From Sphagnum compactum (taxonomy: Eukaryota), in assembly GCA_965153455.1 (NCBI GenBank), contig OZ234493.1:20512213-20576212 (forward strand): DNA of 64,000 nucleotides, written 5' to 3'. Shown here piece by piece: positions 12,655 through 64,000 of the stretch. Position 1 is the first letter of the stretch, and the number at the start of each line of letters is the position of its first letter. Below the pieces are notes generated by a model. That model was given only the letters and a program-made list of their open reading frames with translations, was not told where the DNA came from and searched no databases. Both the position numbers and the translations under genes were made by a program.

Positions 12655-13065
12655 ATGACGCCGGAGCAGCAGCAGCAGGGGATTCTGGGGATGATGGATC
12701 CGGATAGCTTGTCCAAGGCATTCGTGGAGCACTACTACACGCAGTTCGACACCAACAGAATCGCACTGGTGAGCTTGTACGATGAGGCATCTATGCTGTC
12801 GTTTGAAGGTCAGCAGATCCAAGGCGCACACAACATTGGAGCCAAGCTCAACGGTTTGCCTTTCGAGCAGTGCAAGCACATCATTTCCACAGTCGACTGC
12901 CAGCCTTCGGGTCCCCCCGGCGGCATGTTGGTGTTCGTAAGCGGCAGTCTCCAGCTTCCGGGAGAAGAGCATTCTCTCAAGTTCAGTCAGATGTTCCACC
13001 TGCTTCCAACTCCACAGGGAAGCTTCTACATCTTCAACGATATTTTCCGCCTCAATTACGCGTGA
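12655..13065 (+). CDS. NTF2: Nuclear transport factor 2, intronless; conserved start is probably MDPD at 12694
   Basis: MDPDSLSKAFVEHYYTQFD...SMLSFEGQQIQG...STVDCQPSGPPGGMLVFVSGSLQL...KFSQMFHL...FYIFNDIFRLNYA is a full-length plant NTF2. Confidence 0.97.
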   Translation: MTPEQQQQGILGMMDPDSLSKAFVEHYYTQFDTNRIALVSLYDEASMLSFEGQQIQGAHNIGAKLNGLPFEQCKHIISTVDCQPSGPPGGMLVFVSGSLQLPGEEHSLKFSQMFHLLPTPQGSFYIFNDIFRLNYA

Positions 13066-14074: not shown

Positions 14075-16352
14075 TCATGCATTCCACTGGCTATACAGGG
14101 TATTGCTTTTCAAAGTTCCCAAAGAAACAGACTGGTGCCAACTAACACCCCAGTCCAAATGCATTTGCATGGAAATGATATTTACTATTGACATCCAGCT
14201 TCTCCATAAGTCACATTCATTAGAAAATGTCCTGACCAAAGTAATCAGTGCTGTAGGATTTACCCCTGCTTTGTTGTTGGCAACCTCCCTTGCATTTGGG
14301 AAGCACTCCAGGAATTTGCTGCAAGCAGACAAACAGAACCTGAGGCCTTAGATGGAATCATATTGTCATGTGTATGATATGTGACAACTGGATAACTACC
14401 ATCACTATAATTCTTCACACAGAATCTGTGTATCTTGGACTCTAGGTCCTAAAAGGTTCTACAAATGTTCTTAGACTGTCCGAGCAACATTGTGGATTGC
14501 AAGAGATTGGTTGTTTGATTCAACTTGTCTTCACAGCATATGAACTCCCTCAAATTCAATCAGTATGGCCTGCAGATATTGAAGAATGCAAACCTGTATT
14601 GCCAGCTAAAAGCCATTTGTGGTGAATCAAAAGAATCTTGGCAGGGAACTTTAATGCTGTAGCAGAGGAATGATGGATGCTCCTTGAGGATCACCTCACC
14701 TTGTGACCACTTCACAGTCGTGATATCTTTAACACTGTTGAGGGACCAAAATGAGAGCCCAGTTACACCAATTCGGTGGCAACTGTGGTTTATTAGTCCA
14801 AAAATAACATTCCAGTATGGTTCCATGATCCCCTTTGCACACAACTTCGCTCTTGTTGTCATCTCCACCTCCAGAGGTCGGTTGACAATTGAGGATGGTT
14901 GCTGCAGCAACAATGCATCTGAACCTTGGCTGACCTCATCAGCCACAAATGGCAATTGGAGGTCAGATGCTTTGCCAATCAAAACTGGTTCAACAGGCAG
15001 CTTCCTATTTGCAGCAGTGCTTGACACTTGCCTGTTCTTCATCTTTGTTGACTGTCCTTCTTCAGCTTGCATGAAAGGCACTTGTTGGGAGCCAACAGTG
15101 TCACAAGTCCTGGCAGTGTTATTCTTGTGCTCATACTGGAACTCAGTGGTGCAACCATTGAGTCTGTTGTCCTCATACACCAAAGACTGAAGTTGGTTGT
15201 GTCCATCCAAATTCCCCCCTTGTTCAGTACTGTCTGCTTCCCTGTCAACTTGCATAGCTCCAGCTGACTGGTCAATATAAGCTTGAGTAAACAGCTCTTG
15301 TTTGAAGGAATGGCATCCTGCAGAACTAAAAGCATTGGCATTGTTGCTCATTATGTTATCCTCATGGACCTCAGTGTTGCCATTAGACAGGGAATTCTGG
15401 TCCTCATACCCCAGGGACTCAACATGATGGGGTTGATTGATACTTTCCCCTTGTTGAGTACCTTTCTCTTCTTGATTATCCTCTTCTGCTATAGCTGACT
15501 GCTCATCTTTGGGTTCAAAGAGTGTTTTGTCTCCCACCAAATCCTGTTTCTGTGGAGAGGAATCCAAAGAGTTGAGAATTTTTGAGTTGTTAACCTCATT
15601 GCTTGCCTCAGTGTTGCAGAAGGCAAGAAACTTTTGGTCTTCATATTCTAACTGTTGCACAAACTCTTCTTGTCCTTTGCTCCCCACCTGCTCTCCATCC
15701 CCCTCATTGTCTGCATGTAAGGACCCTAATTCTGGATCTGGGGCCTGAAAAATACATTCCTCAATACCAGAATCAGACTCTAGGCCTACTGCAGAGGCTT
15801 GCTTGATACAACATTCCTGGAAATCAACAGACAGAAATATGAGCATTCTGCAGTTTAGGGATTTTACTAATGTCAAAAATGCCATATGGTTGCTTCGTAG
15901 TCATAGGAGTTTTTTACCTTCAGAACATCAAAATGAGCATGTTGTTCCTCTCCAGGAGCAGATTTCCACGGCCCATCGGTCACTCTGGCATTCTCATTGT
16001 CCACAGTAACACATTCTGGCTGCAGACCAATTTGCTTCTCCTTCTGGCCAAAGTTTTCACTGACTTCCAGAATGCCAAATCTATTTTGGAGTTTCTCTTC
16101 AGTGCCATCAAATACTGCTCCATCATTGTCCACAGGACTAAAATCTGACTGAGGACCTTCTGATTGATCCTGATCAAAGTTCCTTATGAGAGTCACACAG
16201 CCCAGTGTGGCCTCCTGTTCCTCACTTGGAATGACTTCTGGCTGTGGAATATTCTCTTTCTTCACATGATTAGCTCCTGCCTGAGGATCATACAATTGGA
16301 AACACTTCTTCACATTGGCATCCAAGGCTTCAATGTCTATATGTGTAGTCAT
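14075..16352 (-). CDS. Uncharacterised acidic protein, ~633 aa; predicted exons 16352-15918, 15816-14594, 14318-14075; start uncertain
   Basis: Three ORFs join in frame through canonical GT-AG introns: AAG|gtaaaa..ttccag|GAA (phase 0) and AG|gtttgc..ttgcag|C (phase 2). A CpG-rich 5' region lies at ~17600-18900. Confidence 0.65.
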
Positions 16353-17000
16353 CTCAGCTTTGAAATCCAAGGGGTCATTGCCCACCTTTCCCCTGTTAGT
16401 CAAAGCCAAGCCCAGCAATTGTTGTTTAGCATAACAGCGAGAGTTAAAACTACTTGCAATATTGACACACAATCCTTTCCTTATCTCTAAGCTCTTATCA
16501 GATGTGAGATAACTTCAGCATATAGGAGACCAGAAATAGCATCACCAGGCCATTTCAATGTGCCTCACGATGGTGTCATCCACCATCATCTCCAGATTGA
16601 CAATTGCATCTGTATTCGAATCAAGTATCGAATGTCATCAGTTCAAGCTTTACCTTATAAGAAATATTTTGACCTTAAAACATGAAGATGAAGTGTTTCT
16701 CTTTGCACCAATGCTTTTCAGCTGCAATTTCATCTTCTCTTACATTAATAGCTAGGCATGCTGCAAAAGATAGATCAATAAATCATCAACAACATTTGAC
16801 ATGCACACAAATGCATCACTGTGAACTCACCTCTGAGGAAAGGCAGATGCTGAATGGATGCTAGAATCTTGCAATAAGAGTGGCGGAGGTCTATTAGTGT
16901 TCGTGTGTCAGCATCCAGAATGGAACCAAAGTTATCTATTATCACTTGGACATTGTGCAGAGAAGAATTCTTGAAGAGGTCTCGGAACCTCTTCAAACTT

Positions 17001-18905: not shown

Positions 18906-20169
18906 GAAATACCCCATTGGTATGTATACTTGCGGTTCTCGAATCGACGCGTTCCCTCCCAAGGTTAGGGGGTCTTGCTTTGGGAACACCACGCTCCCCT
19001 CCCCAGCATTACCATGCATGTAAAGACATGGCGAGAAGTTTATAGTGCATTTGAAGGGTACGTTATTTTTGCATATTAAATCATCCAAAAAAGGAGGGTA
19101 CATTTCGAACTGAAATTGCCTGCCCTCACACAACACGAACAATTTCATTTCAAAATGTTTTTTCGTTTTTTCATTTCTTTCATCTATAAGTAAAGACCTG
19201 GACCCCTTTTTCAATCCTAAAAGGATTAAACCCTAAACCCAAAGCATGGGAGGGTAATTCTACTTTTCATAGGGCACTTATGTTTTGATTAGGAATTATA
19301 GACTAGGTGAGGGTTGTCGGTTTAGGGTTTCATGGTTGTAATAGAGGTCGATTACAACCACAAATCCCCCCCCCACCCATCAAAGATTGTAAACAAATTT
19401 TTATGTTGGTTCCATTTTTGCACGACTCTTTACTTCTTTCGCCTTTGTCATCGTTTTCACCATTCTTTGTGTCCTTTCTATTTGAATTTTCTTATTTCAA
19501 CAAGCATGCATGTTTTCCTTATGACAAGCTTGTTTTTGGAATGCAATGAGAAGGACTAACCCTAACAAGCTCCTCTAAGTTTAGATTGGTGGTGGAATTA
19601 CACATCGCATTGCAAAAACACATTTTCAAGTATTAGTTTATGATGGTTGTTGTTTTTTGTAAGGCCTTACAATGAGTTTAACATCAATTTTCAATAAGAT
19701 GTATTGACCACATAGATTGTGGTGGAAGGGGAGTTGCTTATCCTCTTTGTTATTTGATTATTGCTTGTTTTAATTTCTAGTTTTGGATGTTGATGTTGTT
19801 GAAAATCTTTGACATTGAAGTTTCAAGTTTAGCAAAATTTTGGTAATTTCTAATGTTGATGAAACCTTTGAATTGTATAGGTTCTTACACTTGAATTAAC
19901 CAATGAAACTTTGGTTTCATTAGATCATGTTTATTGGAACAGTCTTATTATTATTCCTTTGTTTGATTATCCTTTTAGTACTGATTTTGAGGAATGTTTT
20001 AATTGTGGCAAAGATTACAGGGAATTATGGAGTTAGTTAATTCCATTGTATTTGTTAATAAGAACACCAACATTCAAATCATGAACAATGAGGAGACTCC
20101 TTCATAATATAATGTTGTTGAAGATGAGGATTTATTTTTTCCAATAAATAATGAAGAGCTTAAAATCAT

Positions 20170-22110
20170 TAATGAAGGTGGGAGGAATAGGAGCAAAACC
20201 TTTGATCGGTGGCTTTTAACGCATTTCAAAAAGTGACAAGTTGTAACATCTTTTCACCATTCTATTGAACCGCAAGATTTGCCACTCAATGTTCTTGGTG
20301 AAGGTTTGGTTCTCTTTGTATTATCTTTGAAGAAAGTGAATGGCAATTACCATCCTAATGTCATTTTTTGTGCACACATGTTTCATGCTTGTGATTGTGT
20401 GATTTGTCGTGCTCAAACGAAGAAGGTTTGTGATATAGGTGTTGATGAACCAACTATGTTCATACAAAACCATAGTTACTTTGAGAAAATTTGTCATGCA
20501 TTACTATGGATATAAGTATCAAAGTTGGAACTAACAAACATAGAATGAAATCTAAACCTACCAAGTGGAAAGATGTTGAAATATGTTTAGTAAATCCAAA
20601 TCATTTAACCCATCATCTTGTTAGTCTTCAAAAACAATGGGCATTCTATTGTTTTGGGAGGATATTCATTTGTTGTTGTTAAGAAAAGGAAAATAGAGTA
20701 GTAAACATATAGGCAAGTCGATAAACAAATACAAGTCAAGATAGGCAAACACAATGATAAAGTAAACAAAATGGTATGATAGTATAAACAAATCAGTATG
20801 GTAGCATGATCACACAATGTATTGATTTGTGGCAAGTCGATTTGCCAAACAATTAGGCAGTTATATCCGTTTTGTGGGGAGTATAAAAGACATTTCAATT
20901 GACTTACAAGGAATTTGAATGCTTGTTGTTTGTATGTTATTGTTGTTCTTTTAGGAGAAGGCAAGCAGGGAATTATGAGAGGAAGGAAGGGAGCAAAACA
21001 TTGTAGAGCTTCATGGTTTATGGAAATATAAAAGATGTTTTTTCTTTCATACTTGTGGTGTAGCATTGTATGTGGTATTAATTGAATGTATTTCCAAACT
21101 TAAAAAACATTGAACATTATCCTAGTTAGTATGTTTACGTTATACTCATTATGATGGAGTATGACAAGAACCCAGTAGTGATATGAAGGTATTTAATTTA
21201 TTTGTGGAAAATCATAATTAATACTTGCAAAATTATATCATTAACAGTTTTGGAATTGAACCTTTTAAGCTTTTTGATATCAATTTCAACCTCAACAAAG
21301 ATTTTCATGAAAATTTTGTTTAATAATGATTAGTCTTGGGTTCATAGTTGTGAACATTTTTTATGTTTATGTTGCAATCAACTTGGATATATTATTAAGC
21401 AAAAAATTATAAATTCACAGTGATTAAGTGTTTATTGTAGACATGATTGTTTTGAAATTTATGCTAATTATGTGTTTAACATTGCAAGTATTTTGAGTGT
21501 GATTTTTAAAATCACAATAATGTGACAAAATATCAAGAAGAACATTTTTGAAACTTTGTTTCTTGTCATGATCTAGATGCGATCATAACATACAAACAAC
21601 TTACTTGACATTTGCCTTTTAAAAAGAACCCTAATATTAGTCAACATTTTTTTAATAAGCAATCCAAAAAAAATCACAAACAATGTATATGAATTTTGAT
21701 GTTCTATTGTTTCATGTGTTTTGTTCTTGAGATTTTGGTTTCTTGAGGTTTTGGTTTTTTTTTTAAAAATCCTTCATTGTTCCTTGAAAACAAATACATA
21801 AATAATTTATACTAGTTTTTTTGTCATATTTTAAACAATTTGGTCGCTATGAACTTCAAGCTTTGGCATAATATGAACAATGTGGGAGTGACAAAACTCT
21901 ATTTGGATGAAGAATATGTTCAAGACCCAATTGGTTTTGAAAGGTCTTACACCAATAAAAATCTTAGATATTCTAACATTCAAAACATGATACAAGGAAG
22001 GGTGCCCACAATTGTCGGAATTAATGCACATTTTGTGACACAAGAATGGAGAATCATATAAGAGATATGACTAAACCTTGGAGATTCATAAACATGCAAT
22101 GATGGAGATT
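20170..22110 (+). mobile_element. Degenerate tyrosine recombinase gene, Crypton/DUF3504-like
   Basis: LVLFVLSLKKVNG, KSKP...LQKQWAFYC, LWHNMNNVG...SYTNKNLRYSNIQNMIQGRVP (HxLR-box-like), then HKNGESYKRYD in a shifted frame at 22039-22071 (His and catalytic Tyr box). Confidence 0.65.
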
Positions 22111-24085
22111 ATTGTAAACCTTTTCACAAAAATTGATGGATGTAAAAAATACAAAAACATCTTGTTTAATAAAAGTAAGGAGATTTTTTGTTTCAAATTG
22201 TCTAGGTCCAATTTTCAAAACAATCCTTTAAAAAAAAAATCATCTTCCATTCAACTAGAAGATGACCAACATGCAATTGATCCATGTTCAAACAACATGG
22301 AAGTTCAAGATTTTGGAATTGTAAATACTTCTAAGGTTGAGTCCAACACTACCATTGTTATCTTTTGATGTTCAACATTATTTTGTTATTCCTCCAATTA
22401 ATGAGGTTTTAGCCATGTTTCATGTTGATAATTTCAAATAGTAGACAAAATCAAACAACATTATTATTCTAGAAGTTACTAATTGTATCCCTCAAGTTGT
22501 ATCTACCTAGGGTGAACTTGATTTGTCCCAAATGTTTCAATGCAAAAATCTAGTGGTGCCAATGGACAACTTCTTGAATAAGATTACATCAACTTCAACA
22601 TTGATGAGATTTTGAAGAAATATTGGCTAGAGGGTTCAATGTACATGGGTTGTACGATTCATCCAATGAATATTACTCATAATATTGAGTAACAATTTAC
22701 AAGCAACTTCAATAATTGCATAATTATTTTTTGTGTTGATCCTATGTTACTTGAAAACTTCATTGCAAAGAAACACGCTTTAGGATTGACTTGATTAAAG
22801 ACCAAAGACATAAGAAATTGACATAATATATCCATATATATATAAATAAATACTTGAATAATTTTTAAAACAAATATAATTGAATTGTAATCTTGTAGTT
22901 GTTTTCAACTAGTTAGTTTATAAAACTTGATCTATTGATGTTGGAGAATAATAGTCATTTTACTTTTTGCATTCACTTATAATGATCAACATTGTTCACC
23001 TACAAGCCTCAAGCTATATACCATGGTCTTACTTTGATTTCCATACATTTGATTTTGATTATGTTTATGTAAAAAATGTTTTGCAATTTAATGTTAGAAA
23101 AAAATTATTATTCTAGAAACATTAGAGAAAAAACATCTTCCTTACGTTGTCATCAGATGTCAATGAAATAATAGTCAAAGGTTCATAAAAAGGGGGTTTG
23201 ATTTTGGGTTGTAAATACCCCCACAAAAAATCCCATAAAATGGAGCTAGTGAAAATTATGCCTTTTGTAATTCCCATCCTTCCACTTGTTTCTACTTTCT
23301 TTTACTCCCATGGCATGTTGCTACTAACTATGCATTCACCTGCATTTTTTCACCTTTCCATTTACCTTGCCGTTAATCCACCTAAATCATTGAAAGAACT
23401 AAAAGAAACCATAGAGACAAGTTTAATTTTTACACCATCTAACACCCTTGAATTGAGTTGTTTCCTAAAATAAAGGCCCATTGGTTCTATCTTAAATGGG
23501 TCCTTATTTGGGGAAATGTTATAATCCTCAAGTGTTATCTTACACCTATATTAGACTTAGCTTGGATTTTCCTTCTTATTAGTGTGTTTCATCAATGTTA
23601 TCCATCCAATGTGCAAATTTAGACTTATTTTGGTTAATTATACTATGATTGGAGCATGACTTGATTTCTTTCAACACAAAATGTATCAAATAATAACCAT
23701 TGGGAAGATCAACCATTGGGAGGAATTGGTTGAGTGGTAGATGTTCATGAGTCGAGTTTGACCAATGGCCATTATTTTATATAATTAGTAGTTGGGAGAA
23801 ATGTTGCACATCATTAGGAACTTTGTAGACTATTTGTTAGACATGTCAATGTATTATATCACATGCATTTGAAAGGTGGAATATTTCTTACATGTGACAA
23901 GTACATAAATTAATTAAAGGCATAGAATATCTAAAGATTGCAATGCATGACTTGCTAAACAAGGATTAGGTAACCAACAAGAGGTTAAACATAACTTACC
24001 ATTCAAAAGTTTGAAAGCAACAACATAACCTTCATGTCAATGGATGAAAAGTTGCGTGACCTTTTCTTCAATGGACGAAAATTCA

Positions 24086-27000
24086 TATATGAAATCCATA
24101 TGCATAAGAATGATTTTGTATTTACTATGTCAACAAAAATGTTTCACACACATATTAAAAATGGTTTCTATTGATCATAGAATTGACAAGTCACTAAAAT
24201 TTGTTTTGTCTGAGAATATTATTATGACATATGTATTCATGTACTATATAGTATGTGTATAATACTATGACACTCCCACTAATACATTAGCAAAGTCCAA
24301 AAATAACCATCTAAGAGTAGTAAGCTTTAATCCACTTTTGTATCACTTATTTTTGTCACTTTTTATCTTTTCTAACTTCCATCGTTTCTTCTTTGGTTCT
24401 CACTACCTTTGTATTTTTGGCTCCCACTTCTTTTTGTAGGTCCATTGTTTTTTATTGTGAATAAAAACTTTTTGTCTTCACAATAGGTTTGCTATAATGG
24501 ACAATTTTTTTGTTGTAGAACATGCGCCATTGATGAGCTTGTGAACATGGCCCATTCAATGATGATGCATTATACAACATTGAATCATTTGTGATGGATG
24601 AACTAGGTGAACAAGGTCCTTCTTGTGATGATTTGGCCAATTATATATTGATAAGTTAAATTGCCATTCCTAGACATTTTTTGCTTCATCATGTTTTCCA
24701 TTTTTGGGTTGTGTAAATGTAAAACCTTCAAACATAAATATGAACACTCACTTCAAGGATTTGCTATTTTATTTATATAACTTGGAATAATGTGGTTGTA
24801 AGATCATATTACAAAATGTCAAGAGCGTGTTTGAGCTTAGCTATTTGCTCAAGTAGTCTTCACATTCTTGCAAATGACAATAATAACACAACTTTCTTGT
24901 TTCAATGGAAAATTGAGGAATTTCTCACACACAAATGATAAGAGCATGAGGATTCAAATGAATAGACAACAAGTTAAGTGCCTTTGAATAAACCAAGTGA
25001 TGTCATACATTTTATATTGCTTCTTTTTAGACAAACTTTAGTAAATATATCAACTACTAAGGTTGAAATATTTTCACATTCCAATCTAACTTGCTGAACT
25101 TGAATTTGTTCTTTGGTAAAATGATATTGTGCGTGTGATATTTAAGGTTTTAAATGAAGGTAGTTTAACACTTTGGTTGTTAGTATAAATCAATGTTGGA
25201 TGTGGTTGAGGAAAATCAATTTAGCTAATAGTTTTCTAAACCAAATGGCTTGTATTGTAAAGCCATGCATTCATATTTAATGCTTGAAAGAACAATTGAA
25301 GGTTTTTAATGATTTGCCTAAGATTTAATTGGGCCAACTAATAGAAAACAAATCCAAAAGTTGAATAGTGTGTGTTTCTATCACTTGCTTAATCAACATC
25401 AGAAAACCCATGTTATAACATGTGGCCATCATTTTGCCTTTGCTATTGGATGCCTATTGATAAAATACTTTTGATGTAATGTAATATATGTTTGGCAATT
25501 GTTAATGTACTTCCCCATAATTGGAAAAACCCACCACTTGAACTGAGGAATTTGCATTGGGTTTGTATATCTTATGGACTATCATATTTAGATAATTTCA
25601 CATTAGATTCCATAGGTGTAAAAAGTAAATTACAATTCATCATTTTGAATTTATGTAGGACTCGACTTAACTATTTTTCTTGTAATAACATCAACCAACT
25701 TGTTTTTTGTTGTGAATGATTTGTATGCCCATTGTCAAGACAATAATTAATATCCTCTTCATGAGACATTTCAAACTCTTCCAATTGATCTTTCAAGTCA
25801 AATAAAGACATAGGTAATTTTCTCACAACAATGCAATCATGAACATATAGAATAATAAAGTGGCCTTCATAATGTATCTTAATGCAAATATTACAATCAA
25901 CTTTTATCCTTGAAAAATTATGACTTTTTAAATAGGTATTTAACCTTTGATACCATGTTGTACGGATTGTCATAGTCCATATGGCGATTTATATAACTTG
26001 CATACAAGATTTTGGGACTTTTGGCATGTAAAAGTTTTCATCCAAAACCCCATTTAAAAATCTAGTTTCAAAATCAAATTGATGAACTTCTAAATCAAAT
26101 TGGGCTATTAGTGTTAACAAAATATTTATGGAAGTGATACAACAAGGGAATTTTTTTTTCCAAAATCAATCTAAGGAACCTAACTAAAACTTCATGCAAC
26201 TAGACATGCTTTATTTTGTTCACACATCCATCTATGTTGTATTTTATTTTGAAGTTCCAATTACAAGTGAAAGGTTTTCCATGTTTTAGCAATGTAACAA
26301 ATGTCCATGTATTGTTTTTCTTTAAAGTTGTTATTTCAAAATATGTAATTTTGTTCCAATGTAGAAATTCACTACTTTTCAAAACTTTTGACATGGATTG
26401 AGTTTTTATAATATGTTTTTGTGCAACAAATGTTATAGGATTTACCTTTTTCTTGAGGTTTGAAGTGACTTTTCTATTTTTTATAATCTTTATAAATTTA
26501 ATAAGTGCTTGCATTTTTCTATGTGATATAGCATGTGTTATTTCACTCGAAGAACTCTCAAATGTAGGTGTAATAATTGTATTACAAGACCATTGGATTG
26601 ACATTTTTTTGATTAATTACACTTAATCTTGAAATTTTTGAATTATACTTTGAAAGTTGTGGTGATCCACCTTTTTCATTACATGAATAATTCACATTTG
26701 ATACATTATCTCAATTGGTTGTTGTTTAGAGCTAATCTGGGATTAATTTTCAAATTTGTTGTTGTGTAAATGGTAAATTTGGTTGAAGATTATTCATGGA
26801 GTTGTAGGTGCTTCAAAGTTTCATGGTATTATAGTGATTATATTAAAAAATAATGATTTAATTCTTCTTGAGGTTGTTTTTAATTAGATTGAATGAAGAT
26901 TTGGACTTAAGGTGCGACATTTCATCAAAAACTACATCCGTCAATATAATAATTTGATTAGACCCCTTCTTCATCAATCGATAAGGTTTTGATTTTTCAC

Positions 27001-27692
27001 TATAATTTAAATATTTACACAAGCTATAGAATGTGAGTCAATTTTCTGTTTGTTGTCTTGATGAACTAATGCATATGCAATACACCTAAAAACTATGAGG
27101 TGTGGTATATTAGGTTCTTCTAAAGATTTTGTAGGTGATTGACAATAGCTTTTCTTGTTTGAATATCAATAGTAATTTATGTTTCCATACATGAAAATAA
27201 GAACCATCAATTTTTTGAACGACTTATGTCCACTTTGTTCAATGCCATTCATAATTTTGCAATATGAACCTCAAATAACATGAAACTTGCAAAATTTATT
27301 TTTCATAGCAACAATTTGTCCAAGTCAAGCAATTAAGAGAAAGTCTAAATTCTTTTGTTAGATGTTTCATGCTTATCATAACTTATATGATCAATTAACA
27401 TTCTTAAAACTTGATCTTGACATGATGTTCTCTCATTTCAAAAGTTCAAACATGGTAACAATTTATGACAAAATTGAGTGTGGCCAAATTGCACTCTGAT
27501 ACCATATTGAAATTACATAGATAAACATAATAATGATTTCGTAAATATTATGTCATCAAGAATGTTCATACACACATCTATAAAGCCAAATGTCTCTGGT
27601 GATCATAGATCTGAGGAGTCACCGAAATTAGCTATATCTAAGAGTATTACTATGATATAATATTCATGTACTATACAATATGTGTACAATAA
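24086..27692 (-). mobile_element. Old, internally deleted Ty1/Copia LTR retrotransposon retaining both LTRs
   Basis: Diverged ~190-bp direct repeats at ~24086-24272 and ~27505-27692. Minus-strand PBS TGGTATCAGAG at ~27494-27504 and PPT AGTGGGAG at 24273-24280. RT remnants LKKNNTWTFVTL..KPFTCNWNFKIKYNIDG and IILYVHD; post-integrase FRCIAYALV. Confidence 0.85.
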
Positions 27693-27949
27693 TGGGTACC
27701 CATGGTTCATTGATTCTTTTAAAAAAGAAAAGAAAACAGAACCGGAGGTTCTCTGATTCTGAAGTATTTAAGGAATTAGACACTGATGGTTATTAACAAA
27801 ATCAAATACCCACCCAACACTAGAAATTACCGGACAGGTTTCAGGAACTTTTAGCCCAAGACAGTATGTATCTGTGCAATTTGCTGGTCTGGAATTGGTC
27901 AGAGAACAAATTAAATCTGTCATTACAAGAGCACACTCCCTTTCGAATG

Positions 27950-28125
27950 GCTACAGCAGCAACAGTCATATTACAATATTTCTGCTTTAGAACACTGGTG
28001 GCAATCCCTAAATGCTGCTAGTGCATGCACTCTTTAGAATGAATCTGGCAGCAACAGTCATAGTACAACATCTCTGCTTGAGAACAATGGTAGAAATCCC
28101 AAAATGCTGCTACTTGGTGTGTGCA
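27950..28125. repeat. Diverged tandem duplication (~90 bp x2) downstream of the CAT gene
   Basis: gcagcaacagtcata.tacaa.at.tctgctt.agaaca.tggt...aatccc.aaatgctgcta occurs twice. Confidence 0.8.
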
Positions 28126-28385: not shown

Positions 28386-30991
28386 TCACACTTGTGTATC
28401 TGGCAACAGCTTAGAAGTCGTGGTTTGCTCCTCCTTTGGCAACTCCCCTGCCAGCTTACTGTGGCTCATCCCATAGAACAGATACACCACTACTCCCAAA
28501 ACCATCCAGACTGAAACACGCAACCATGTAGGGAGCCCAAGACTCACGAGCAAGTATACATTCACAAGAATGCTCCCCAATGGTAATGCTGGTACCCATG
28601 GACAATGGAAGCCTCCTGCTTGCCCAAACTTGTGATGGCCTTCATCTTGCTCAATCAAGAACAAAACAGTCGATGCAGCCACAAATGATGGAGTTCCCAG
28701 CAACCCCAACAGCCATCGGATAGAGATTGGAAGGTCATTTGCAGCAGCAGCCAGGCTGATGAGGACAACACCAACACAAACTCCAGTTATGGCAAACACT
28801 GCTGCCCATCGCCTCAAGTCCTCATTTGACTCCAGTGTATCAGTCTCCTGTGCATATAGCAAAGATTCATGAAGCACTGGTCTGGAACTGCTAGGGGACT
28901 CTGGGGCTGCATTCACCTCCTGGTCACCTGCCTCATCCTGGAGTAGAAGAGACTCACTGCTGCTCACTGATGATGCACAATCGTCTTCAATTCCACGGCC
29001 AGGCAGTGTTTGCAAGGATGCATCTGACAAAATTGACAATACAGGTGAGAACATGGTGGCTTTGGTGAAAACTGGCCTTGATGATGAAATGTGCACAGAT
29101 GGAGGACCCTTGTCAGGTACTGTAGCTTGGATGACTACCTTTGCAACCTCTGGAGGTGGTACATATCTCAGGATTAGAAGGCATACAGCAACAACTGTGA
29201 AGGCTGACAATGTCCCCACACTCACCATGCCCGAAAGCTGGTCCACATTCATAGAGAATGCCATGAGTGATGCAACCATACCAGTAATCAAGGTACCATT
29301 GACAGGCACAGCTGTGATGGGGTGGAGGATGGAGAAGAAGGGTGGGATCAAGCCATCCCGTGCCATTGCCATCAAAATTCTGGGTTGAGGCAGAATTGAA
29401 CCCATAAGGGTAGTGGACAATGCAGCAATTGCACCTGCTGCTACAACAAACGTTGCCCAGGGCATGCCATGGTTATCGAAGGCAGAGGACAGAGGTGTGT
29501 CTGGGTCTATCAGATTGAAGGGGACAAGGCCCACAATCACAGTAGAGAGCAACATGTACAGGCCTCCACAGATGAGCAGAGCAAATCCAATGCCCAGAGG
29601 GAGGTCTCGCTGGGGATTCTTCACCTCCTCTGCTGTACTGGCAACAGTGTCAAAACCAATGTATGCAAAGAAAAGAGTTGCTGCACCTCCAAGCATCCCA
29701 TTGACTCCATAGGGCAGGTACCCTTGAGACTGGTGGTAGCCCTCCCACCCACTGGTAAAGCCTGCCCATGAACCTGCTAACACCACAAATACCAACACTA
29801 GAATGTTGAGAACTACCATAACAGACTGCACCCTTGCACTCTCCCGAATGCCCATACATAGGAGTCCTGTGACCACCAACACCAACAGCCCAGCGCAGGG
29901 GTCAACTACAATGTCAATCCCAGGAATGGTTCGGCGTACTATCCAGCTTGGCAAATTCTGTTCCCCTCCAAAAAAGACTCCCAAGTTTGGCGAGATACCC
30001 CGTGCAACAGTGGCGCCACCCACTGTGTATTCCAATATAAGACCCCAGCCAATGATCCAAGCCACCCTGCACACAAACAAATCATAACTGTGTTGATTTT
30101 ACTGCCACCTACCTTCAGTTGCTCACACCCCACAGTGAAAATTGTGACAACTCCAAGTTGAAAATGACAAATGTGTGTGTTTCCTCTTTCCACCCCACTC
30201 CAGCTTGGAACAAGAATTGTGGGGGATGAGGGTTTCCCTTCATTATCAAGCTTGCTCTTGCAAGTAGCTGTGCATTTGCATCAAACAAAACAGAAAACAA
30301 ACAGCAGAAAAAATAACAAGTATTGGCTGTTACATACCCCTCACCCACACATGTGTAGGCATAATGGTAAGCACTACCAGCAGAAGGGAGGCGGCTTGAA
30401 AGCTCTGCATAGCACAAAGCTGCAAGAGCTGCAGCTATCCCAGCAATGAGGAATGACAACGTGAGTGCTGGCCCTGCTCGCTCCCTGGCAACTGTCCCCA
30501 CCAGCACATACACCCCTGCTCCTATGGTTGATCCTATCCCTGCAATTTCACACATCTATGTCTGTCAGTAAGTCAGTCAGTCAGTGGTGCAAGCCAGTAT
30601 CTATTCTATCTGCCATAGAAAAATGCAGATGTCCAAGTGCAACTGTGGTTACCATGGCAACAGACAACACAAATTCCAAAGATTCCAGGACTCTTCACAT
30701 GTGAACTGCATTACTAGCCTAGAGCCTGAAGGAATTCAAAACAGTCTCAACTGCAATTCTTATCAGATACTAGAGTTCCAAGTCCACCACTCCTGAAATG
30801 ATGTACCAAAATTCACACATCCTGCACACATGAGCAGTCTCGGGAAATCAAACAAGGCAGAGAGGGGGGGATTGCAAACCTATGGAGACGAGGTCCATGA
30901 CACGGAGCCTCCTGGCCAGTTCCATGTGACCGGCATGGCGATGCTGCCGCACCGCCTTCCTCCGCCATAGCGCCAGTATAGTCGTCTTCAT
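28386..30991 (-). CDS. CAT2: Cationic amino acid transporter (APC superfamily, CAT2/3/4-like), 664 aa; exons 30991-30880, 30539-30338, 30066-28386
   Basis: MKTT...[29 protein letters not shown]...[38 protein letters not shown]...[25 protein letters not shown]...[10 protein letters not shown]...[10 protein letters not shown]. Both introns are GT-AG and phase-consistent. The exact paralog is uncertain. Confidence 0.95.
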
Positions 30992-43999: not shown

Positions 44000-45508
44000 T
44001 CAAGGGCGCTTGGAGCTGCTCCTGCGAAACCCTAGTTTGAGTTCCAGCTCTAATATTGCACTGTCCCGGTCATGGCCGCCAGCAACAAAGTCAGTGGAAT
44101 GTTGATTAGCTGCAAGTCGCTGCAAATGCCCTCCGCTGCCACCAGTTGCCCTAGCAGCTGGTGCGTAAATAAGAACAGGATCAGTAGCTTTCGCTCGTCT
44201 GGTTTCTTCGCTGATCGGCTTTGATCTAGAGCATGGCTGTAGCAAACCTGTACTAGCGTGCCAGGTATTACTACTACTGTTTTGGGTCGTCAGCGGTTGG
44301 ATCCTTAGAACCTGATCTGACAAGACTTCACTCATGATGCAGTCGGCACGAGGACGTCGTCCATGAAAGAAAAGCTCTATGTGTGAGGAGGAGCTGGAAG
44401 ATGGCGATGGTGCACTAGAGCTGCATGCCGCCAGTGGGAGTGGGAAATTGGTTCTCGCCTTGGCTCCGCGTAGCCTCCTAGCAGCAGCGTCGTAGGCGCG
44501 AGCCGCGTCTACTGCTGTGTCAAAAGTCCCTAGCCAATGTCTGCATCTTCCGATGCGGTCGCGGATCTCGGCCGACCACCTTCCCCATGGTCGCTTCCTC
44601 ACACCTCTGTACACTGGCGCGCTCGTCCCTAGTGTGTCATCGCCATCCACGGTAGTACTAGTGCCTGATCTCGACTTGCTATGACTGCTCTCTGCGGGAG
44701 TGAACGCCCTGAGACTCTCCAGAAAGGGAAACAATGCATCTGAGTTTTTCTCGCGCCCACCTTCAGCTTGGGGGGCGTTAGTACAGACTCCCACGCTTAT
44801 ACTCGACCTCAAGCTGCTGCTTTCCGGAGTGAAGGTCGCGGAGTTCGCTGTTTCCGGTGATCGAAGTTTCAAATTTAGGAAGGACTTGCCTGTCATCATC
44901 TGATACGGTTGCTCATGAGCTTCTCCTGCTGGAGTTGTATGCCAAGCCGCATCCTGGACAAGCTTTGGAGGACTGGAAGATGCACAGGAGGAATGGCCAG
45001 CTGGGCGCCAACACTGGACCTGATCACCAGCAGCTGAGCTTCCAAACAACGCACGCTGCCCAACAACCGCAGCGATGCCATCCAAGCCCTGATCACCATC
45101 TGCGACCGCCGCGCTTGTCGACCCTGGGCATTTATGATCGAGTACGGGATCGCGCACTTCGACGTCGAGTGTTCTCTGCAGTACTTGAGTCTGGTCTCCA
45201 AAGCTGTGCACGGAGAAGTCCTGTTCACGCAAAGACGGAATATCGTTCCAGCTACTGAAATCTAAGCTGCAAGCCTCATGGCTTGGTTGCAGCGGCAGCG
45301 GGGAAGAAGCTGGGCTGCAGCACTCAGTAACAGCCTGAGCCGACGAGCACATGGTACAAAAGGGATAGAGAGAGGGGCCCGCACAACGCACGCACGCACC
45401 CCATAGAACTTGCTCGGACTGGTCGTCATCTGCTTCCAGCTCCATGTTGTCACGCCACTTCCGCTTCGAAGACATGGAGGTGCTGAGGAGCATGTCATGC
45501 AGAGCCAT
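44000..45508 (-). CDS. AP2/ERF transcription factor, group VIII ERF084-like, 502 aa, intronless CDS with C-terminal EAR motif
   Basis: AP2 domain [56 protein letters not shown] (~44611-44444). Also [15 protein letters not shown], an NLS-like KRKWR and C-terminal LELELKL. Confidence 0.95.
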
Positions 45509-45681
45509 TGGGCCGGCCGTGATTCAACCAGCTCGTGGAAGCTGATCAGTGCTGCTGAACTGGAATATCAAACCTCCTACTCGCTATTGAACCACTGATC
45601 AATTATATCGTGGAAGACCCAAGACGCGGGTGTCCACCTATTTTGAGGAAATCAAGGCCGACGGCACTATTACAGAAGCAG

Positions 45682-60479: not shown

Positions 60480-62750
60480 TCTTGTTATACAAAAATCAAT
60501 GATTGGACAAACCATCCAATAAGGAAAGCTTCAAACAACTACAAGATAGATTCGTTATTCTTGTGGAAACATTATATCTATTCATCAGAAACTCGGATAT
60601 GTACTCAAGGTTCAAATACCTGTTTTTTGTCCAATGCAAATCTATTAGCACCCACTTGGATTTGGACAATGACAAAGGTACCCAACAAACTTTCCCATTC
60701 ATTAGTGAACAACAAAATTCCACCATTAATGAATGTTTGTTGTTTTCATATGAGGAGGCACCCACTTGTGAAGATTTTGCTTCCAGATTCTTTTATGATT
60801 GCTCTGCACACATGCTCTAGATTGATGAACGCACTTGTTAGCTTGATGGAGCACACAAAAAAGTTTCTTTGTGGGGTTTCCAATCCCTTGGGAGTCAAGG
60901 TTTATCGTCTTTCTATAACAGAAAATTCCCACCATTTTATTGAACCCTTTTTTGACTTGATGAAGTGTTCATTGGGATCAATGTAGTTCTTTCATGGAGT
61001 CAAGGTTTTCAACTTAAGCCTTTTCAGAATGTTAATAGGTTAGCAAGATATCCCTATGTTTTTAGTGGAATATTTGCTACAAGTGAATGACAAGATGTCT
61101 CCAACAACCTTGTGAAGCTTTGTGAGATTTTGAATCTAGACAACAAAAAGCTTGATTATAATTGTATGCATGGAAACAAATAAGTTTAGTGAAAGTTCCT
61201 TGTTTTGGTGTTGGTTATGTGGAACACAAAACACATTGTGATGTGTTTCAGTGACCCCATGCATGGAAGCACCATCAAGGCCGCATCAAGTTTGAAGACT
61301 CAAAGATCTAATGCCATCCTAGTGAACTTAGCAATCTTAACACCCTTTTCCATATTGTGATGTGTGGATGAAGCTTGCTTGGTTTATTGGGGCTATTTTT
61401 GAACAAACTCATGGATATATTTCTTTCCACAAAATGCTGATAACCAAACTCATACTCATGTACATTCATTAAAGTAAAATACCATAGTGCATGCACAATT
61501 GTGTATTAGTGACATTTTCTTTGTGTGTGATTTCCAAACTTATAATGTGCATGTCAAGGTCTGTATGTTTAGTTTCTAACATCTTAATGAAAGCCTCGAT
61601 ATGTGCAATAATCATATCATTTGAACACATTTGTTGCCGTGCTCCAGGATCCTTGTAACTAGATATTCAAAAGGATTACTGAGAATCAACATTTACCCAT
61701 CAATTACTCAAACCGCATATAACAAAAGCTCCATCACACTTATAATGAATGTAACTATAGACACAAATGTGCAATTGTTGCCACCACCATCTGATGTCAA
61801 TGTGACAAAAGAGCACAATTCTTCTATAATTCATTTGCAAGGAATAAGTTAGTTCCTTGTGTCAAATCTTTCTTAATCCCACAAATTGGTCTCCATAACA
61901 GTTGTGGGGCAAAGCATCATTTGTATGGTCTCAATGTGGGAGGCAAGTCCTCTTTAAATTAGTAGCTTATAAGTCTATTTTTGTGAAATCCCTATGGTCA
62001 CTTTGTCTACATAGGATTGTTTGCTTCAAAAAAAAAAAGACTCCAAAACTATGCATAGTTAAACCATGTAAAAGCAAAAACCACTTGCAAACTGCACTTG
62101 TTCATCCCATGTTATAACCTGCAGATGATAGTAGATGGAATTTCCTTCATGAACATTCAATAATATGTGATTATGCATGACCTCTGTGAAATTTTGCAAC
62201 TTGGGTCTATCAAAACTTAAGTAGAGTTAGGGAAATCTATGAGTATGACTAGAACCAGTACTTTTGATAATGGTTTTGAATGAGTTTTGTCCTCCCTCAA
62301 CTTAAGATTCCGTGTAACGTGACCTAGAATTTGCACCATCCACACTTGATTCTTCTTTCAAGACTGCTTCAACGACATCCTCTTCCTTGGCAACAAAATG
62401 CATGATTAGAAATTGCTTTTGAAACTCTTACATGATTTCAAACCCCAAATGCCACAACTTGAGTTCACACATAGTCTGACCATGAATCTTAACCATCCAT
62501 GGGTGCATTATCCTCCAAAGTAGTTTTCACCACTAAGTCCTCTTGGGGAGCCAACAAAAGCTCAAAATTGGCTTCTAAACCTTTTACAAAAGTTACCCTA
62601 GAGAACAAATTTACCTACACCACATGAGTTGTTCCAAAATCGTTCAAACCAATATTTGCATCATCTGCACACACTACTTCAACTATTCTATAACCTTTCA
62701 AATATATTTCTAAATCTTTTAAACCAACCACTTCTACTGATTGAGAACGT
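60480..62750 (-). mobile_element. Highly decayed TE-like coding relic, Cys-rich, possibly with protease motifs
   Basis: Broken minus-strand frames contain DGGGNNCTFVSI, WYFTLMNV and DGAS(C)-like segments plus Cys clusters. No intact ORF. Confidence 0.3.
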
Positions 62751-64000
62751 TTCAAATCCATGTGACATTTTTTCCTTCGTTAATTTCTTGAAATAATCTC
62801 AACATATTCAAAGGAAATAACACATGTTTACATTTGTATGGAACTACATGTTTACAATGTACATGTGTATGAAATTGGAAGCACACGAAAATTCCAAAAA
62901 ACAACAAAACAAAAACAAAGACATTGAATTATAATTGCTTTGACATACTAAATGCAAAAACATGATTATGTACTCACCTTTTGCATTGACATGTTTGCTC
63001 CTTTATTAATCTCTTGAAATAACCAAGTAGCATATTTACATTTGTATCAAATTACATGTTTACATGTGTATGAAATTGGAAAGACCCAAAGATTCCCAAA
63101 AAAAACTGAAAGGACACAAAGATTTCAAAAGACATTGAAAAAAATAAAGAGATTTGTTTCTCTTTTGATATCTTGAGATCGATATAAGGACATTTTGAAA
63201 CATTACTTCTTGTAAAATGTTTATTTTTTAAAGATTCCGGTTTGGAATCGACCTTTAATAAATCTGTAGTTTAGAACCATATTTTTGTACAACCCACGAG
63301 TATAGCCCATCCCACCTAAACCAGCTCTGATGAAATCATCGTCGTTGGAATTTTGAAGATTTGTTTCCTAAAAATGATGTATTGAAAAGACTTCAAGAAT
63401 ATGCTTGAAAAATCAATGAAAGAGCACAAGTTTAAAGGGGTGCTCCTATTAATGTGGTTGGAACCAATTTTTATTATCAAAACCTATCTATTGGAGTTTA
63501 AGGTTGAATAGTTTAAATACATACTTTTAGCTAAGGTGTCTAATTTAAACAACCTAGGTTTCCTAATTATCCATGTTTTTGGTTTAAGTGACATAGGTTA
63601 AATAGGCTAAACAACCCAACCTAGGGACTCTATGCTAACTAAGATGGGTGGCCATGTGGTGCCATTTGTTCAACTTGGAGCTTACCACATGTCAACATTT
63701 CAATGGTCAAAGAACTTCAATGTCTCTACATTTTTGTTATAAAATTAGTTGCAAATGACCATGCCACATAGGCATAAGTGATTGCATATTTTAGTCACAA
63801 AAACCAATTGTAAATGGATGTGTTATGTTGGCTAAATGTGAATTCAATGAAAATTTTGCGTTAATCCCACCTTGATACAATTTTCATTTTGATTAGATGC
63901 CATGTCATGTCTTTTCTAACTAAAATTTCATGTGACTTATCGAAGGCGACTAGAAGAATTAATAGTCACATAAAGCATTTACAGTTGAAAAATAGTCATT

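Follow-up and report, generated by a model that had tools for sequence, protein, structure and literature searches.

DUF3504 (PF12012) is a protein domain derived from Crypton recombinases (Kojima & Jurka 2011, PMC3212892). In that paper, domesticated animal DUF3504 genes are described as having lost most of the catalytic tetrad and as encoding proteins much longer than the domain, and the recombinases of DIRS and Ngaro elements are stated not to match DUF3504 (PMC3212892). The domain is called 'widespread in Opisthokonta' in the 2026 Glomhopper paper (PMC13465315), and active Cryptons in the green alga Chlamydomonas integrate at a 5-bp target matching their terminus (PMC9977147). For land plants, the accessible text of a 2022 transposon review makes no mention of Crypton and excludes DIRS, elements of which are known from green algae (PMC9033089). 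The corresponding text of PMC4438587 includes Crypton among the superfamilies reported from all pooled groups, land plants among them, at the level of an annotation table only, and that of PMC11630846 merely names Crypton as a class. We found no characterised land-plant Crypton in the open-access library searched. In land plants, mobile elements of the tyrosine-recombinase kind are regarded as missing or of little account, and the Crypton type is hardly documented.

Here we analysed a stretch of 64,000 nucleotides from Sphagnum compactum, referred to as the window, and we lean towards reading its + strand between 20126 and 22758 as a dead copy of a Crypton-type (DUF3504-like) recombinase gene, belonging to a divergent lineage that is missed by current Pfam. 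The host context of this relic is plant-type nuclear DNA, as judged by the following flanking domains, all identified by Pfam scans of ORFs.

12655-13062, + strand, NTF2 domain
25674-27165, − strand, decayed Ty1/copia element with RVT_2 and an integrase SH3-like domain
28389-30555, − strand, cationic amino-acid permease
44003-45523, − strand, AP2 domain in a 507-aa frame

The Pfam scans covered 150 of the 154 ORFs of ≥70 aa in the whole window and 100 of the 105 ORFs of 38-69 aa between 17000 and 28300. Nine ORFs fell outside both sets, eight of which were covered by another Pfam scan, the exception being 63055-63270 (−). No RNA genes turned up in the window, either with Rfam or in a tRNA scan. 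The relic sits in an AT-rich intergenic block at about 19.2-28 kb (GC 0.27-0.34). An earlier note on this DNA had proposed a decayed coding relic in plant nuclear DNA, and both parts of that proposal are borne out, the first by homology to an intact protein (P0004, see below) and the second by the plant-type genes and the copia relic on both sides.

Several additional features of the window were recorded. Of the copia element, two RVT_2 fragments remain (25674-25988 and 25992-26165) together with the integrase SH3-like domain (26861-27165); two direct repeats around it, at 24164-24264 and 27592-27691 (75% and 90% identity), are separated by 3.4 kb and may be LTR remnants. Within 19218-19368, plant telomere-like motifs form an inverted pair, AAACCCTAAACC and GGTTTAGGGTTT, 79 nt apart. 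Next come a 21-nt hairpin and a C-run, in the GC-to-AT transition that precedes the relic; either a small inverted-repeat element or a set of promoter telo-boxes could account for this region. Just past the low-coordinate end of the permease ORF, a 92-bp unit is tandemly duplicated (27928-28111, 79% identity). Two − strand ORFs of 446 and 213 aa (14563-15900 and 15876-16514) matched no Pfam family at E ≤ 0.001 and probably belong, as exons, to an unannotated gene without a known domain. Lastly, 60503-60817 (+) gave a class-II DAHP synthase match below threshold (E 1.5e-4, 20.8 bits vs a cut-off of 27) and could be an exon or the fragment of a gene.

The translation of 20108-20512, with its single TGA read as X (P0001), was searched with HMMER against 1.84e9 representative proteins, which yielded 11 proteins at E ≤ 1e-3, including 4 at E ≤ 1e-10. 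The best match was P0004, an uncharacterised protein of 819 aa (E 8.6e-23, 41% identity). When P0004 was compared with the whole window by tblastn, six collinear HSPs were obtained on the + strand, and one short piece was added by Smith-Waterman, bringing the total to seven, all of them within 20126-22758 (+) and in the same order as in P0004. Elsewhere in the window, tblastn gave no further match to P0004, and the window thus holds one copy. Coordinates of the pieces were taken from tblastn and BLASTP, because MAFFT misplaced short window pieces.

20126-20506, + strand, piece 1, matching P0004 213-338 (tblastn 41% identity, joint E 3.7e-32 with piece 2)
20506-20670, + strand, piece 2, matching P0004 341-395 (tblastn 42% identity over 55 aa, joint E 3.7e-32)
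21258-21320, + strand, piece 3, matching P0004 400-420 (Smith-Waterman score 39; BLASTP 9/21 identical, E 0.008 in a single comparison)
21486-21674, + strand, piece 4, matching P0004 421-484 (tblastn 41% identity, E 8e-10)
21864-22022, + strand, piece 5, matching P0004 490-542 (tblastn joint E 1.9e-8 with piece 6)
22024-22164, + strand, piece 6, matching P0004 542-587 after a +1 frameshift (tblastn joint E 1.9e-8)
22600-22758, + strand, piece 7, matching P0004 759-812 (tblastn E 0.077 window-wide; pairwise BLASTP E 4e-5)

The pieces share homology and order with a single intact protein, P0004, as well as with several fragments. The coding relic at 20126-22758 (+) is real, its match to P0004 being far above chance, and the collinear matches also make it longer than had been stated: the earlier note let it end at 22110, and the match continues to about 22758. 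Three blocks had been described, of which the first and the third lie about where they had been placed; the middle one (21130-21490) holds only a 63-bp piece, and the largest middle piece, 21486-21674, is found in the stretch that had been taken for the spacer behind it. Both peptides quoted from the last block are present, as 21816-22058 (frame 0) reads ...LWHNMNNVGVTKLYLDEEYVQDPIGFERSYTNKNLRYSNIQNMIQGRVPTIVGINA... and 22039-22071, after a +1 shift, reads HKNGESYKRYD.

Piece 1 corresponds to the N-terminal helical (core-binding-like) domain and contains an in-frame TGA at 20234-20236 opposite a W of P0004. Piece 2 precedes the first catalytic Arg box and lies in a different frame from piece 1, with a frameshift near 20506, and piece 3 starts directly after the RGASE box, the first Arg not being recognisable in the window copy. 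Piece 4 has in-frame stops at 21507, 21549, and 21606, the first of which occupies the Lys position of the DSKN motif in P0004. The KxxR box is carried by piece 5 (K 21957-21959, R 21966-21968), which is also 42% identical to the short protein P0016 (BLASTP, E 6e-9). Piece 6 contains a His (22039-22041) and a candidate nucleophile Tyr (22066-22068), together with stops at 22036 (G in P0004) and 22072. Piece 7 represents the C-terminal tail with one stop at 22690, and the 435 bp ahead of it are the counterpart of the Q-rich region of P0004, which is poorly conserved. Altogether, the aligned pieces contain seven in-frame stops (20234, 21507, 21549, 21606, 22036, 22072, and 22690) and the relic at least two frame changes (~20506 and ~22023), and the copy is therefore dead, a pseudogene. 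Today it is intergenic filler with no evident function.

Three stretches between the pieces, all without an HSP, have to be considered as possible introns.

20671-21257, + strand, gap 1, 587 bp, GC 0.31
21321-21485, + strand, gap 2, 165 bp, GC 0.24
21675-21863, + strand, gap 3, 189 bp, GC 0.25

All three gaps in the alignment with P0004 are compatible with introns, in agreement with the possibly intron-split gene suggested earlier, and the gene of the element probably had introns at these three places; gap 1 may be intron-like or an old insertion. The spacers had been described as AT-rich, which applies to the gaps as such (GC 0.24-0.31), but their contrast with the pieces is weak (GC 0.25-0.35) and the composition of the two is hardly different. 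In the interior of gap 1 there is one inverted-repeat pair with 13-nt arms (21143-21155 and 21211-21223, 85% complementary). No inverted repeats were found at the edges of gaps 1-3, and the 164-aa ORF running across gap 1 on the − strand (20608-21099) matched no Pfam family. Inspection by eye revealed no phase-consistent GT...AG pair across gap 1: the three GT donors found at 20672-20679 have phase 1, and the only good acceptor, at 21245-21247, has phase 2. As donor and acceptor phases disagree, the intron borders are beyond reconstruction in this decayed copy. Four fragment proteins (P0006, P0007, P0009, and P0012) share one alignment point after a conserved NG..YPS..L, at which three of them end and one begins, and this common breakpoint suggests an intron there in other copies. 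The window copy runs uninterrupted past the same site.

Relatives of the relic are few. Among 5.8e9 proteins, the only full-length relative of P0004 was P0004 itself, and one shorter relative was found, P0016 (97 aa, 70% identity). Including the latter, eight short fragments (P0005-P0009, P0011, P0012, and P0016) show 33-95% identity to P0001 or P0004, and the HMMER search with P0001 additionally identified P0013 as an N-terminal relative (E 2.7e-4). Two of the fragments, P0005 (51 aa, 95% identity) and P0008 (40 aa, 85%), are nearly identical to the window but differ from it by small indels, and their source must therefore be other copies or alleles, or else close relatives. P0008 begins with a Met that equals the window ATG at 20088 and is in frame with the conserved domain, and the window copy needs a 1-nt shift within 20088-20125 to join this ATG to that domain; a third frameshift is accordingly possible, as is a short N-terminus in this sub-lineage. 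A 1633-aa repeat protein (P0010, E 3.7e-6, seven stretches) was dropped from all alignments as unrelated; Pfam assigns it CBM9 and Avidin fragments. A word-indexed search with P0002, an 81-aa block, returned no longer proteins, and of 45 pattern matches in bacterial and archaeal genomes, none was confirmed by tblastn.

In P0004, residues occur in the order known from recombinases, namely R396 (in RGASE), K428, K521-x-x-R524, H547, and Y556, which were assigned by eye and would together form the active site. The relatives P0004 and P0016 both preserve the order of the C-terminal motifs pointed out in the earlier note, and KxxR and GH...Y are present in all three members that cover the region (P0004, P0016, and the window). 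The window copy retains KxxR, H, and Y, with the first Arg unrecognisable. In the same three members, a Lys replaces the first His of most tyrosine recombinases. Type IB topoisomerases have a Lys at the first-His position, and the replacement thus need not abolish catalysis. From K521 to Y556, P0004 spans 35 residues, the same distance as between H289 and Y324 of Cre, two residues that are named in PMC13465315. The ancestral protein would have combined an N-terminal helical DNA-binding domain with a C-terminal catalytic domain. Its reaction would have proceeded via a covalent 3'-phosphotyrosine intermediate, a route requiring neither a reverse transcriptase nor terminal inverted repeats.

The same protein features bear on the strongest alternative, in which the window copy is the pseudogene (a duplicate) of a host gene that was anciently domesticated from a Crypton recombinase, like animal QRICH1, ZMYM, and KCTD1, and not of a transposon. 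We consider this serious rival unlikely, as P0004 and P0016 still have the candidate catalytic residues, whereas domesticated animal DUF3504 genes have lost most of the tetrad (PMC3212892), and as the eight short fragment proteins, with their 33-95% identity, resemble scattered decayed copies. A domesticated gene would nevertheless agree with the architecture of P0004, which is extended by 212 residues at the N-terminus and contains a long Q-rich helix (622-697, pLDDT >90 in the AlphaFold model); domesticated DUF3504 proteins likewise greatly exceed the length of the domain (PMC3212892). It would also agree with the very small size of the P0004 family in databases, and with a window copy that has intron-like gaps and lacks recognisable ends.

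Whether the family belongs to the tyrosine recombinases at all was addressed by sequence, feature and structure searches. The earlier note had named profile searches against DUF3504 and Phage_integrase as a check, and these came back empty: at E ≤ 10, neither PF12012 nor PF00589 matched any window piece or P0004, the result for PF00589 applying to P0001, P0002, P0003, P0004, P0015, P0016, P0017, and P0019, and no Pfam family was found for any window piece, P0004 or P0016. Myticin-prepro and DUF3911 matches on pieces were below the Pfam cut-off and were ignored. P0004 had no match in NCBIfam, and PDB sequence and profile searches gave no recombinase, all matches having E ≥ 0.43. AlphaFold models reached a mean pLDDT of 48.7 for full-length P0004 and 52.9 for a 389-aa core, with the catalytic core <50; a Foldseek search of both low-confidence models against the PDB returned no match at E ≤ 0.001, with Cre chains on ranks 32-35 at E 1.6, a value too weak to count as evidence.

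The recombinase link comes from a protein-language-model feature search (Atlas) with residues 205-610 of P0004. The top three clusters, from Mollusca and Cnidaria, scored 0.98 with 195-205 of 256 shared features, and contain DUF3504 at 49-74%, Phage_integrase at 42-53%, and QRICH1 at 11-31%; the best of them (205/256) has PF12012 DUF3504 at 74%, PF00589 Phage_integrase at 42%, and PF25561 QRICH1 at 31%. Lower rows comprise ALOG+Phage_integrase and NDC10_II, both recombinase-derived, and the ten best family-bearing matches all fall in one family or clan. On the Atlas scale, shuffled proteins reach 0.95 in about 1 of 100 cases and 0.8 in a third, a calibration made on whole proteins, to which the partial P0004 query is compared. 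As a lead, and by features rather than by alignment, the nearest relatives of P0004 are DUF3504/QRICH1-domain proteins. For P0002, hAT-related clusters (ZBED1 RNase-like, DUF659) scored ≤0.82 and were taken as chance, because a third of shuffled proteins score 0.8. Furthermore, P0013 gave a sub-threshold match to the Pfam QRICH1 domain (E 9e-4, 19.7 bits vs a cut-off of 30.8), and the PHROGs family phrog_1 'integrase' matched P0004 530-724 weakly (E 0.0015), a match that extends into the Q-rich tail and may thus be partly compositional.

Against this background, a real family of unrelated helical proteins that resemble the recombinase boxes by chance is, in our judgement, quite improbable. It would account for the missing support from Pfam, NCBIfam, PDB sequences and Foldseek, and the recombinase link does depend mainly on one language-model search; however, first-match scores of ≥0.95 arise in only about 1/100 shuffled proteins, the families matched are exactly those that had been predicted beforehand from the motifs, the weak matches to the QRICH1 domain and to the PHROGs integrase are independent of that search, and the K521-Y556 spacing equals that of Cre H289-Y324. 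We are fairly confident in the assignment of the family to the tyrosine recombinases. The core idea of the Crypton identity put forward earlier is probably right as well, but the evidence in its favour, including the Atlas score of 0.98 and the motifs, is indirect, and no recombinase match came from Pfam, PDB sequences or Foldseek.

The short inverted 8-mer motifs CCCCTTTT and AAAAGGGG, which had been suggested as the ends of the element, could not be upheld. CCCCTTTT occurs three times in the window against an expectation of 3.88, and 79 of 100 shuffles reach three; at this chance level, the two flanking copies are no evidence of ends. Nor were terminal repeats found, the best flank-to-flank local alignment scoring 28 in direct and 25 in inverted orientation, compared to 25.2 ± 3.2 for shuffles. 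Cryptons are not expected to carry terminal inverted or direct repeats. The absence of long terminal repeats fits a Crypton, as weak evidence from a single decayed copy.

Among the ORFs covered by the Pfam scans, no reverse transcriptase or RNase H was found on the strand of the relic, which argues against DIRS/Ngaro. The only reverse transcriptase nearby is the copia-type RVT_2 on the − strand, 3 kb off, and the earlier observation that neither activity adjoins the relic therefore stands. A very improbable reading is that a DIRS/Ngaro/PAT-type retrotransposon lost its reverse transcriptase part and left the relic as what remains of its recombinase, since the + strand of the AT-rich block has no RVT_1, RNase H or methyltransferase match, the 819-aa P0004 lacks a reverse transcriptase domain, no terminal or split repeats were found, and DIRS/Ngaro recombinases fail to match DUF3504 (PMC3212892). 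In favour of that reading are the DIRS-like type of one of the nearest Atlas clusters (ALOG+Phage_integrase) and the DIRS elements known from green algae (PMC9033089). We have moderate confidence that the element was a transposon.

The preferred reading, a decayed Crypton-type recombinase gene, can be extended to a tentative and rather doubtful proposal, according to which land plants would have a Crypton-type lineage of their own, with at least one intact Lys-x-x-Arg member, P0004, that would be either still mobile or a Q-rich nuclear regulator, and with a fossil of it in the window. The relic itself is ordinary junk, and its interest lies in the lineage that it indicates. If such a plant lineage were verified, it would extend the host range of Cryptons and give recombinase biochemists a naturally occurring active site in which His is replaced by Lys. 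It would also be a candidate source of domesticated plant DNA-binding or recombinase genes, beside ALOG (PMC3537659).

Compared to known systems, the order and spacing of the candidate active site of P0004 appear, as judged by eye, to match those of Cre/XerD recombinases and type IB topoisomerases, with no detectable sequence match between them and P0004 in the PDB searches. The candidate Lys-x-x-Arg of P0004, as in type IB topoisomerases, would take the place of His-x-x-Arg. Within the green lineage, the best available mechanistic model is CryptonF-1_cRei from Chlamydomonas reinhardtii (PMC9977147), an active element of Crypton group F; the window copy is dead and of another group, a comparison made by description only. 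By language-model features, the clusters nearest to P0004 are CryptonA/DUF3504 (PF12012) proteins of animals and Glomeromycota. These share with the P0004 family a probable organisation in two domains, the N-terminal one helical and of QRICH1 type, a recombinase as the only recognisable enzyme, introns, which in the relic are probable ones, and the absence of terminal inverted repeats. Unlike them, the P0004 family escapes the Pfam models for DUF3504 and Phage_integrase and has the KxxR Lys in place of the first His in 3/3 members, and P0004 bears a long Q-rich C-terminal tail. The host differs as well, being a plant here, in contrast to a domain described as 'widespread in Opisthokonta' (PMC13465315). 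If P0004 were a recruited Q-rich nuclear regulator, it would parallel QRICH1 and ZMYM of animals.
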